From: an uncultured archaeon
GTDB lineage: Archaea; Asgardarchaeota; Hermodarchaeia; Hermodarchaeales; Hermodarchaeaceae
NCBI GenBank assembly: GCA_964347045.1
Contig: CAYFXC010000001.1
Coordinates: 160,001 to 224,000 of the forward strand
Length of the DNA: 64,000 nucleotides
Direction: 5' to 3'
The translations under genes were made by a program, and so were the position numbers. The notes under the pieces were generated by a model. The model searched no databases. It was not told the DNA's origin and saw nothing but the letters and a program-made list of their open reading frames with translations. Below are positions 13,034 to 63,596 of this stretch, one piece after another. The first letter of the stretch is position 1. Every line of letters starts with the position of its first letter.

Positions 13034-13043
13034 GTGTGCCAAC

Positions 13044-13053
13044 ACATTTAAGC
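13044..13053 (+). promoter_or_regulatory. Candidate TATA box of the tRNA-Ile gene
   Basis: acatttaagc about 30 nt upstream of tRNA G1. Confidence 0.45.
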
Positions 13054-13079: not shown

Positions 13080-13225
13080 GGGCACGTGGCTTAGCCTGAT
13101 GGAGCGCCGAACTATCGTGCATTTAGCGCGAAGTGTGTATGCCTTATATGGTGTCGCTCTGAACATTCGTTTGCGAAGCCTAGGTTAGCCGGAGGTCGCG
13201 GGTTTGAATCCCGCCGTGCCCACCA
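13080..13225 (+). tRNA. tRNA-Ile(UAU) with two introns (29/30 at 13110-13140; 37/38 at 13149-13186), CCA encoded
   Basis: Spliced product GGGCACG-TG-GCTT-AGCCTGATG-GAGC-G-CCGGC-CT-TAT-AA-GCCGG-AGGTC-GCGGG-TTTGAAT-CCCGC-CGTGCCC-A-CCA forms a full cloverleaf. Both introns fold into BHB-type motifs. Confidence 0.88.
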
Positions 13226-13228
13226 TCT

Positions 13229-14767
13229 TCATTTAGTTCTTCCTTTCTTTTCAAATTTCTTAGTCATAGTTTCAAAATCTTCTCCAAAAGCCGTTTCTTT
13301 AGTTGTTCGTTTTCGGACCTGAATGAAAACTGGAAACCGAGTAGCCTGGCCAACTACTAATGCTTCTCCAACACTAAGGCTTGAAATAGACGTCAAAGTT
13401 GCTTTTGTGATTTTTTCTGATGTAGCTCTAATGTGATCTAAGTCATAGGGGTTAGTAATTCTAAGAAATATGTTAGATCCACATTGTGAGAGAACTGTGG
13501 TTGAGAGTCGAACTGGTCGTTGTGAAATAATACACAAAGAGAGGTTATATTTACGACCTTCTCGGGCAATAGTTTCAATTATTCCCTTTGAAAAAGCTAG
13601 GGCACGGCGTGCTTCAGGACAGAATTGATGAGATTCCTCGAGAAACACAATTGTAGGAGGTATTTCCTCATCTCGTCTCAAGTCGAATAAATGTCTAAGA
13701 ACAGCATCGACAATGATTTGCTTCTTTTGAAGACTCACCGTTTCACTCATATCAAGTATAACTCCATGGCCAGATTTCATTAACTTCTTCCATTCTGGTG
13801 TCGAAGTCTTTCCGAAGAGATTGAGACTTTGGAGATTATCTAACCATCCCAATAGTGCTTCACGCGTTCGAGTGTTTATCGAAGGATCCTTTTCTAGCGC
13901 TTCAATCAAATCTCCTAAATCATAGGGTCTTCCTTTTCGAACACTACGTAGTGTTCGAATAATACGTGTCAGTTCACGAACCTGGATTGTTCCCATATCT
14001 GGAGAATATATCGCAAAGGATTTTGCACTCATTCGTGGTGTTGCTATCTCAACTAGAGGGCTCCGAATTACTACGAGGCGTTTTTCAATGTTTTTTCCTT
14101 TGATTTCTTGAGTGTCTGCAAACCCTGTGTATTCACCATGAACGTCAATTACAAGTAATGCTGGACGCCCTTGAGCCACTCTTCTTGATAAGAGTTCTTC
14201 GAGCATAACAGAAGCGGCATAACTTTTTCCAGCTCCACTCATTGCCAAGAGTGCAACGTGCTTTTGATACATTTTTGTCAAATCAAAAGTCGCAGGAATA
14301 TTATGAAATAGTAAATGACCAAGCTCAATTCCCTCTTCAGCAAATCCAAGAAAACGTGACAAAATTTTTGGGTCTGGTGAAGAAACAATAGCGCCTGGCG
14401 AGGGAGGATACGTAATTCGGTGAATCTGCCCATTATCAAAAATCCCTAAAGGATTTGCTTCGGCTAACACGTATTCCCATCGGTCAATAGGAAAAATCGC
14501 TCCAAAGGGTCTTCCTGACCGTGTAAATTCATGTACGGCGTCAACTTGCGAAAAATAGCGGTTCGTCTTGAATACATGCTCAACATGAGCGATGACTAAT
14601 CCTTCTTCAGTTTCAACAGAAACGTATTGTCCTACGTGAACGGGTATCTCATTCTTAGTGTTTTGTTCATCACGTTTTCCAATGACAAAGGAAATCTTTT
14701 CTGTTGACGGGCTATCTTCAGTGCATACAACAGTTCCAAGCGATTCAGAGTTCATTTGAGTCTTCAC
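13229..14767 (-). CDS. herA: HerA ATPase/helicase
   Basis: N-terminal HAS barrel, HVALLAMSGAGKSY, IDVHGEY, EESHQF, IAREGRKY, ISQRP. Confidence 0.92.
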   Translation of the reverse strand: MKTQMNSESLGTVVCTEDSPSTEKISFVIGKRDEQNTKNEIPVHVGQYVSVETEEGLVIAHVEHVFKTNRYFSQVDAVHEFTRSGRPFGAIFPIDRWEYVLAEANPLGIFDNGQIHRITYPPSPGAIVSSPDPKILSRFLGFAEEGIELGHLLFHNIPATFDLTKMYQKHVALLAMSGAGKSYAASVMLEELLSRRVAQGRPALLVIDVHGEYTGFADTQEIKGKNIEKRLVVIRSPLVEIATPRMSAKSFAIYSPDMGTIQVRELTRIIRTLRSVRKGRPYDLGDLIEALEKDPSINTRTREALLGWLDNLQSLNLFGKTSTPEWKKLMKSGHGVILDMSETVSLQKKQIIVDAVLRHLFDLRRDEEIPPTIVFLEESHQFCPEARRALAFSKGIIETIAREGRKYNLSLCIISQRPVRLSTTVLSQCGSNIFLRITNPYDLDHIRATSEKITKATLTSISSLSVGEALVVGQATRFPVFIQVRKRTTKETAFGEDFETMTKKFEKKGRTK

Positions 14768-63248: not shown

Positions 63249-63596
63249 TGGACGGAAGCCCCGACGGTCGTCAACCCTCACTGATGCCGTACTCACCGCT
63301 AGGTCTCAGACCCGGATCTCGGAAGCATCAACAGTACAGGTTTACGCTGCTCCCTCCCGGGTCTCGCTGGGTTCACCTGATAAAGACGATTCAGCCCTTC
63401 CTACGAAAAGCCTACCGCCACCAGCGATCCTCCGAGGCGGATCGTCACTGCCTTGAACAGTGAGTCGTACAACAGGTCAGAAAGCCTAACGTCGGCATTC
63501 AGCCCGCCGTAGAGAGCATCTGCGGTACAGGGGAGCCTTAGCCAGCCCGTAGCGGTGCTGCGGGACTTCTAGCCCCCCGCCTAGGCTCACCGTCCA
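63249..63596 (-). ncRNA. ffs: Archaeal SRP (7S) RNA
   Basis: Minus strand: terminal helix GGACGG/CCGTCC, Alu-like CTAGGCGGGGGG...CCCCTGTAC, helix 6 with GTAG loop, helix 8 GAGACCC-GGGA-GGGAGCAGC; TATA-like GGTTAAATA upstream. Confidence 0.9.

Follow-up and report, generated by a model that had tools for sequence, protein, structure and literature searches.

A tRNA-Ile(UAU) gene with two bulge-helix-bulge introns and an eight-nucleotide anticodon exon in Hermodarchaeota genomes in which TiaS was not found

The present analysis concerns a stretch of 64,000 nucleotides (nt), hereafter the window, from the genome of an uncultured Asgard archaeon of the Hermodarchaeota (contig CAYFXC010000001.1, positions 160,001 to 224,000). 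Within it, positions 13080-13225 hold a tRNA gene with two bulge-helix-bulge (BHB) introns, in which the anticodon UAU is carried on a middle exon of only eight nucleotides. Comparison with related sequences confirms the locus as a genuine tRNA gene with two introns of this type. It very probably codes for a functional pre-tRNA-Ile(UAU), the spliced product of which would most likely be the sole reader of the codon AUA in the source genome (G000; 2.58 Mb, 83 contigs, 88.9% complete, 43% G+C). The main support comes from the gene itself, its exon-intron structure, the selection acting on these and the lack of a TiaS match; from these we infer the splicing, the charging with isoleucine and the role as sole AUA reader, as well as some means of avoiding the misreading of AUG.

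Telling AUA from AUG is a long-recognized weakness of the genetic code, for which the three domains of life have different solutions; eukaryotes use a UAU anticodon and an obligatory intron at position 37/38. The gene described here would add the Hermodarchaeota to those archaea that read AUA by a UAU anticodon rather than by agmatidine. It also bears on annotation: genes of this kind are missed or miscalled, and AUA consequently looks unreadable in the genomes that carry them.

Exons, introns and the spliced tRNA

The Rfam tRNA model RF00005 matches the locus from end to end (positions 13080-13222; 39.6 bits against a gathering score of 29), with 80 nt inserted within the anticodon arm. When the three exons (13080-13109, 13141-13148 and 13187-13225, the second reading GCCTTATA) are joined, they form a 77-nt cloverleaf with four arms and the anticodon UAU. 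The spliced product comprises an acceptor stem of 7 base pairs (bp; GGGCACG/CGUGCCC), the D arm, the anticodon arm CCGGC-CUUAUAA-GCCGG, the variable loop AGGUC, the T arm GCGGG-UUUGAAU-CCCGC, the discriminator A73 and an encoded CCA; the CCA is likewise encoded in 17 of the 18 compact tRNA genes of the source genome. The cloverleaf score of this three-exon splice is 79, compared with 76-82 for the compact tRNAs of the genome and 68 for the next alternative. The D-loop (13093-13101) is AGCCUGAUG and the T-loop (13203-13209) UUUGAAU, such that A19-U56 replaces the G19-C56 elbow pair, as in all family copies.

Among the paralogues of the spliced tRNA, tRNA-Ile(GAU) is the closest, with 81% identity. 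This identity, together with A73, A37 and the linkage to ileS, lends indirect support to charging with isoleucine, which may be expected on these sequence features.

In its default mode, ARAGORN calls no tRNA in the whole 64-kb window. With introns allowed, it reports at this locus a tRNA-Asp(AUC) containing one 51-nt intron.

A BHB motif was taken to be a central helix of 4 bp with a 3-nt bulge on each side, the bulges lying on opposite strands and the cuts falling after the second bulge base; the strict form, hBHBh', has in addition an outer (h) and an inner (h') helix. In intron 1, the central helix GCGC (13104-13107)/GUGU (13135-13138) is flanked by bulges at 13108-13110 and 13139-13141, and encloses a strong, covarying inner hairpin (13111-13134; ACU-UCGUGC/GCGCGA-AGU). 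In intron 2, the central helix is CUUA (13143-13146)/UAGG (13181-13184), the bulges lie at 13147-13149 and 13185-13187, and the inner helix joins 13150-13157 to 13173-13180; as read from the sequence, its motif would be of the strict form, complete once the anticodon stem exists. Both introns satisfy the BHB geometry, and the central helices are conserved, with a change from G-U to G-C in one relative (G016).

Motif matching alone was nevertheless rejected as proof of the splice sites. A loose BHB search yields about 80 candidate motifs within the 146 nt of the locus, and ARAGORN accepts 147 splice combinations of it as a tRNA, so that such matches carry no evidential weight by themselves. The three-exon splice is nevertheless the clear optimum by cloverleaf score, and the exon borders were decided by comparative data. 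The minimum-free-energy (MFE) fold of the whole precursor contains no cloverleaf (z = -1.8) and was used solely to ask which motifs can coexist.

Evidence from related genomes

The covariation tests were made on related sequences, and statements concerning the family rest on metagenome-assembled genomes that are 72-91% complete. The gene was found in 17 of the 19 family genomes (the source, 13 of the 14 other genomes of its genus and three of the four of the sister genus) and is single-copy in these 17; the orthologues in the 16 other genomes are 83-93% identical. Exons 1 and 2 are 100% identical in 14 genus genomes, whereas intron 1 shows 69% identity and the flanks diverge, save for an upstream motif, CCAACACATTTAAGC. 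The few variable columns of exon 3 reflect misalignment around an extra intron in one genome (G007). Exon 2 is invariant in all 17 family copies and is common to the Ile(UAU) genes of other Asgard families (f2, f12, f15 and f20 in our numbering). In the intron-1 hairpin, eight of the nine pairs have changed on both sides in a compensatory manner, and 94% of the cells are paired, a level attained by none of 500 shuffles and compared with 20-54% in slid controls. In addition, the acceptor pair 5:68 is A-U in the genus and C-G in the sister genus.

The variable intron content of the relatives provides natural experiments that confirm, at the level of DNA, the proposed exon borders. The G018 gene lacks intron 1, its DNA reading ...GAGCGCCG-GCCTTATA..., and has a D-loop intron instead. 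The junction of CGCCG with GCCTTATA is uninterrupted both in G018 and in the Ile(UAU) genes of f2, f15 and f20; in G018, G019, G056 and others, exons 1 and 2 are already joined in the predicted register. An extra intron of about 35 nt, with the central helix UUUG/CAAR, interrupts exon 3 at position 59/60 in G007, G015, G016 and G018.

These data bear on two alternative explanations of the locus. It might be spliced differently and acquire another anticodon, either that of the Asp(AUC) call made by ARAGORN in intron mode or, through alternative BHB combinations, an anticodon for Lys, Gln or Thr; the 147 products of loose BHB matching carry various anticodons. The alternative splices, however, score at most 68 as opposed to 79, cut through invariant blocks while retaining those that vary freely, and conflict with the exons found joined in the relatives. 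Moreover, archaea hardly ever use ANN anticodons such as AUC (PMC6000648). We consider this explanation scarcely credible.

We also hold it very improbable that this is a degenerating or inactive tRNA relic from which the inserts are not removed. Standard finders do fail on it, and A19 and U56 stand in place of G19 and C56, an elbow pair that is near-universal in tRNAs. Yet A19 and U56 can pair, the change thus being compensated. A relic would hardly show complete conservation of exons 1 and 2 in 14 species in which the flanks and intron 1 diverge, nor helices with compensatory changes; furthermore, most tRNA genes of the source genome carry introns.

The comparative data thus favour the gene with two BHB introns and a UAU anticodon. 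The sequence-only reading that preceded this work had proposed the same three exons and cloverleaf, the coordinates, positions and helices of both introns, the adjacency to ileS and the miscalling of the gene by standard scans, and it is upheld in each of these respects: the RF00005 match, the splice score and the relatives agree on the exons, the hairpin covaries, G018 displays the junction, and ileS ends 46 nt upstream. Paralogous copies of either intron were sought elsewhere in the genome and only chance short matches were found; there is no sign of intron transposition.

Decoding of AUA

The sequence-only reading had singled out tiaS and tRNA-Ile(CAU) as the genes that, if both were present, would weaken its decoding proposal, and neither was found, the tRNA census being incomplete. 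The TiaS_FLD domain (PF08489) gave no match in any of the 19 family genomes, the source included; the same search was positive for each of the four archaeal controls and for 184 of the 400 genomes sampled from the phylum. A tblastn search with two full-length Asgard TiaS proteins was likewise negative (best E = 0.068). The tRNA census required the CCA to be encoded and all 7 bp of the acceptor stem to be matched, an approach that fails on relaxed motifs and recovered part of the full set. The CAU tRNAs in it are an initiator (contig C1:60607-60684; A1-U72, three G-C pairs in the anticodon stem) and an elongator-type tRNA-Met(CAU) (C1:238246-238427) with an acceptor stem of the elongator-Met type and introns at 30/31, 37/38 and 59/60. 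The anticodon of the elongator tRNA lies on a 7-nt exon, ACUCAUA, and its gene is located near one of two paralogues of the splicing endonuclease EndA.

Two other tRNA genes start with AGCCCGG (A1-U72) and are called Phe and Leu by ARAGORN. The first, C1:116118-116240, resolves to a tRNA-Gln(UUG) with two introns, and the second, C7:29722-29845, is probably tRNA-Gln(CUG).

AUA is used at 13.6 per 1000 codons (17% of the isoleucine codons), including 10 occurrences in ileS itself. The tRNA-Ile(UAU) described above is the most likely candidate for its only reader. Alternatively, the UAU tRNA could be real without being the sole or main AUA decoder, the codon being read by a tRNA-Ile(CAU) that escaped detection, its modification being due to an enzyme with no relation to TiaS, or through another wobble mechanism. 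In this regard, the census missed expected isoacceptors in the 88.9% complete genome (e.g., Gly UCC, Glu CUC and Lys CUU), and unrelated C34 chemistries for AUA keep emerging in bacteria and organelles (PMC11938285). Against this stand the lack of a TiaS match in 19 of 19 family genomes, the strict purifying selection on a UAU gene that is single-copy in 17 of 19, and the published TiaS losses, which are accompanied by a tRNA-Ile(UAU) (PMC3575796, PMC8450103, PMC3239211). On balance, a second decoder of this kind appears improbable.

Several points weigh against our interpretation of tRNA-Ile(UAU) as a functional and sole AUA reader. Both the genome and the census being incomplete, the failure to find a third CAU tRNA falls short of showing its absence. 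Intron 1 has a motif of the relaxed form, with an outer helix of only 2 bp and a bulged A. Unmodified or xm5-modified U34 would be expected to misread AUG, and no enzyme that would prevent such misreading was identified, the TruA/Pus1 family not having been found in the 19 family genomes. Finally, a search of sequencing runs listed no RNA data set with this sequence, which occurred only in the probable source metagenome, as DNA contigs.

With respect to TruA/Pus1, its domain (PF01416) was detected in none of the 19 family genomes, as compared with 38 of 42 other sampled phylum genomes; the enzyme may have been truly lost or may be too divergent to detect. The Pus1/TruA route to pseudouridines 34 and 36 was set aside for this reason.

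Splicing enzymes and order of intron removal

The source genome codes for two EndA paralogues that are 26% identical (C7:6355-6609 and C1:239537-239797), one with the catalytic Tyr-His-Lys and the other without the His. The pair fits the broad-specificity alpha-beta type and would presumably form a heterotetramer. Enzymes of this type cut relaxed motifs (PMC5829648). Only 18 tRNA genes of the source genome are intron-free, and many others need one to four introns removed, a situation also described in other Asgard families (bioRxiv 10.64898/2026.10.13.758758).

The two motifs of the tRNA-Ile(UAU) precursor overlap. The outer helix of intron 1 (G21-G22/C31-C32) uses bases that are needed by the intron-2 motif, and G30 serves as a bulge base in motif 1 and as a stem base in motif 2. 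The anticodon stem, which is the outer helix of the intron-2 motif, becomes complete only when intron 1 has been excised. Motif 1 is present in the predicted MFE structure of the precursor, from which the central helix of intron 2 is missing; in the precursor without intron 1, both the anticodon stem and the intron-2 hairpin form. Simultaneous cutting would leave the 8-nt exon held by about 2 bp. Because of the overlap, the dependence of the anticodon stem on removal of intron 1 and the predicted folds, stepwise splicing with intron 1 removed first is likely. Ordered splicing had been suggested in the sequence-only reading, and it is plausible on these grounds, although simultaneous cutting may also occur, since designed structures that contain both motifs are only a few kcal/mol worse. 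Ordered intron removal has already been described for multi-intron tRNAs elsewhere.

The proposed pathway would begin with a transcript from the gene's own promoter, resembling the transcription factor B recognition element (BRE) and TATA box, just behind ileS. The splicing endonuclease would excise the introns at 29/30 and 37/38, an RNA ligase would rejoin the exons, with the 8-nt middle exon supplying positions 30-37, and isoleucyl-tRNA synthetase (IleRS) would charge the mature tRNA, which would then read AUA.

A conserved module in the 37/38 intron

Within the genus, intron 2 is 92% identical, a value above those of intron 1 (69%) and of the introns of tRNA-Asp (72%) and tRNA-Trp (87%). 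Across families, only its 5' portion can be aligned, gapless from the splice site, with the pattern N G R Y N N C G Y Y Y N N N A C A. This module pattern occurs exactly once in each of 28 of the 400 phylum genomes, all of which belong to the TiaS-less families f1, f2, f12, f15 and f20; the reversed pattern, as a control, gave eight scattered matches.

Complementarity between intron nt 7-12(13) and tRNA nt (20)21-26 was seen in every resolved gene. The pairs were counted in ten genes of five families aligned without gaps. In the six core pairs, 59 of 60 cells are standard pairs, and double changes occur at 23:i10 (A-U to G-C), 21:i12 (G-C to A-U) and 20:i13. Neither the observed pairing nor the covariation score was reached by any of 500 shuffles, and 85% of the cells are paired as compared with 34-47% in slid controls. 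The covariation support for a helix between the module and the tRNA is therefore good but not conclusive, the independent events being few, about one per family. The ACA of the module is also conserved across the relatives.

When 41-nt segments from six genes (five families) were folded in isolation, the same hairpin was obtained as both MFE and centroid structure. It joins the module to tRNA nt 20-32 in a stem of 6-7 bp, a 2x1 internal loop, a stem of 3-4 bp and a loop U33-U34-A35-U36-A37-N; the predicted fold places the anticodon in this loop of 6 nt and leaves N-ACA unpaired after the stem. The hairpin crosses pairs of the cloverleaf and of the BHB motif and is thus mutually exclusive with them; in the genus of the source it could form only in a precursor from which intron 1 has been removed. 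In layout it is similar to the acceptor/T-arm minihelix, which has 7+5 stacked pairs, a loop starting with UU and a 3' NCCA tail, and both Cbf5 and Pus10 were found to be present. By analogy, the hairpin might present U34 to an enzyme of the pseudouridine-55 type (Cbf5/Pus10), or shield it from conversion to xm5U before splicing, a suggestion that we regard as speculative and rather unlikely. If it were true, it would represent an archaeal counterpart, and perhaps a forerunner, of the anticodon modification that in eukaryotic tRNA-Ile(UAU) depends on the intron. In any event, the conserved intron-exon helix and the ACA offer a testable handle on why the 37/38 intron is always kept.

A box C/D or H/ACA guide RNA within intron 2 was considered and rejected: its 38 nt are too short, there is no C box, and the CUGA is CCGA or CAAA in relatives. 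The tRNA-Trp(CCA) gene (C5:86486-86630) contains a 58-nt intron with the box C/D-like elements AUGACGA and CUGA, 87% conserved in the genus, which we presume to be akin to the guide-RNA introns of euryarchaeal tRNA-Trp.

Distribution among Asgard families

A multi-intron Ile(UAU) gene lies behind ileS in four TiaS-less families: in f1, the family of the source genome, and behind the best IleRS match in f2 (the sample of which includes a closed 1.4-Mb genome), f12 and f15. The genes of f2, f12 and f15 share the same anticodon arm and 37/38 intron, those of f12 and f15 having been resolved by spliced alignment that makes no use of motifs. All Ile(UAU) genes examined, from five families, have the 37/38 intron. 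Micro-exons around the UAU anticodon recur; in the f12 genome G029, for instance, the anticodon exon is cut down to 7 nt by an intron at 30/31.

TiaS is distributed in an all-or-none fashion by family. No match was obtained in 216 of the 400 phylum genomes, and 12 families have none, including f9 with 135 genomes. No Ile(UAU) gene was found 3' of ileS in the TiaS-positive families f4, f7, f14 and f18, nor in f9; in that family no tRNA of any kind lies behind ileS, and its genomes also gave no match to the module pattern or to the pattern of exon positions 24-37. What is new here is the gene behind ileS in four TiaS-less families and the 5' module of the 37/38 intron in five.

The IleRS proteins of the TiaS-less families are 45-56% identical to that of the source (960-1280 bits), and those of most TiaS-positive families 38-42% (560-600 bits), with f14 an exception at 48%. 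This closeness could reflect phylogeny or a U34-associated type of IleRS.

Comparison with other systems

Both the decoding of AUA by UAU without TiaS and multi-intron tRNA genes are known kinds, which the Hermodarchaeota gene joins. In Nanoarchaeum equitans and Ca. Korarchaeum cryptofilum, tRNA-Ile(UAU) replaces tRNA-Ile2(CAU) and TiaS (PMC8450103, PMC6000648; also PMC3575796). The same holds for ARMAN-2, -4 and -5, and the ARMAN-2 pre-tRNA-Ile(UAU) has a 37/38 intron with a strict hBHBh' motif that is cleaved in vitro (PMC3239211). Like these archaea, the Hermodarchaeota genomes have UAU, probably in place of tRNA-Ile2(CAU), and no TiaS match; like Korarchaeum and ARMAN-2, they have an intron in the Ile(UAU) gene, which in ARMAN-2 is likewise at 37/38. 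Unlike those of Nanoarchaeum, Korarchaeum and ARMAN, the Hermodarchaeota gene has a 29/30 intron and an 8-nt anticodon exon and is linked to ileS. In addition, the module within its 37/38 intron is complementary to the 3' strand of the D arm, which may prove to be a further difference.

Multi-intron tRNA genes are known in the Thermoproteales (Sugahara 2008 and Fujishima 2010, as cited in PMC8450103) and in Asgard archaea (bioRxiv 10.64898/2026.10.13.758758; Valentin-Alvarado 2024, PMC11291895). As in those genes, several BHB introns are located at the D-loop, 29/30 and 59/60, introns are gained or lost between close relatives, and standard finders miss or miscall the genes. The preprint 10.64898/2026.10.13.758758 centres on Freyr-, Jordi- and Atabeyarchaeaceae, and in a word search of it Hermodarchaeota, UAU and TiaS were unmentioned. 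Among the searchable papers, none was found to mention TiaS together with Asgard; in the one in which agmatidine and Asgard both occur, UAU is regarded as an innovation of eukaryotes.

The sequence-only reading had described the decoding of AUA in this lineage as eukaryote-like. This holds for the anticodon and for the 37/38 intron, which is always retained, as in the tRNA-Ile(UAU) of yeast and Cyanidioschyzon merolae (PMC9602550). The three-intron gene of C. merolae is interrupted in its D, anticodon and T arms, like the genes of G018 and of f2, f12 and f15. The likeness is limited, since the strategy is known in other archaea and no TruA/Pus1 was found; in yeast, pseudouridines 34 and 36 are formed by Pus1 in an intron-dependent manner, whereas the Hermodarchaeota intron has an archaeal BHB motif. 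On sequence grounds, the term would denote the anticodon and the retained intron rather than a modification pathway. In bacteria, the tRNA-Ile2(UAU) of Mycoplasma mobile similarly reads AUA by UAU after loss of the C34-modifying enzyme (PMC3575796). Unlike the Hermodarchaeota gene, it is intronless, its U34 has been shown to be unmodified, and its IleRS shows adaptations.

Coordinates and neighbouring features

The features discussed above and those adjacent to the gene are listed in Table 1. The stop codon of the convergent HerA-like gene lies 3 nt past the tRNA end. The upstream motif CCAACACATTTAAGC, which includes a TATA-like TTTAAG at -33 to -28 relative to the tRNA 5' end, is probably the BRE/TATA promoter of the tRNA.

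Table 1. Features of the tRNA-Ile(UAU) locus and its neighbours (positions in the window)
Feature	Position	Strand	Description
Whole tRNA-Ile(UAU) gene	13080..13225	+	Includes encoded CCA (13223-13225); RF00005 match and orthologues
Exon 1	13080..13109	+	tRNA positions 1-29: acceptor 5' strand, D arm, G26, C27-G29
Intron 1, 31 nt, position 29/30	13110..13140	+	BHB type; absent in G018; hairpin covaries
Exon 2, 8-nt micro-exon GCCUUAUA	13141..13148	+	Positions 30-37; anticodon UAU at 13145-13147
Intron 2, 38 nt, canonical position 37/38	13149..13186	+	Strict hBHBh', as read from sequence
Intron-2 5' module	13155..13165	+	nt 7-13 (CGCUCUG) can pair with tRNA nt 20-26 (13100-13106); followed by A and ACA (13163-13165)
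Exon 3	13187..13225	+	Positions 38-76: A38, anticodon-stem 3' strand, variable loop, T arm, acceptor 3' strand, A73, CCA
Upstream motif CCAACACATTTAAGC	13039..13053	+	Near-invariant in 14 genus genomes, rest of spacer diverges; related in sister genus
ileS, class I tRNA synthetase, 996 aa	10043..13033	+	Pfam tRNA-synt_1 (1.7e-115) and Anticodon_1
HerA-like ATPase gene, convergent	13229..14767	-	Pfam DUF87/HerA central domain (4.2e-26)

Elsewhere in the window, an archaeal signal recognition particle RNA is located at 63253-63592 on the minus strand (Rfam RF01857, 119 bits).

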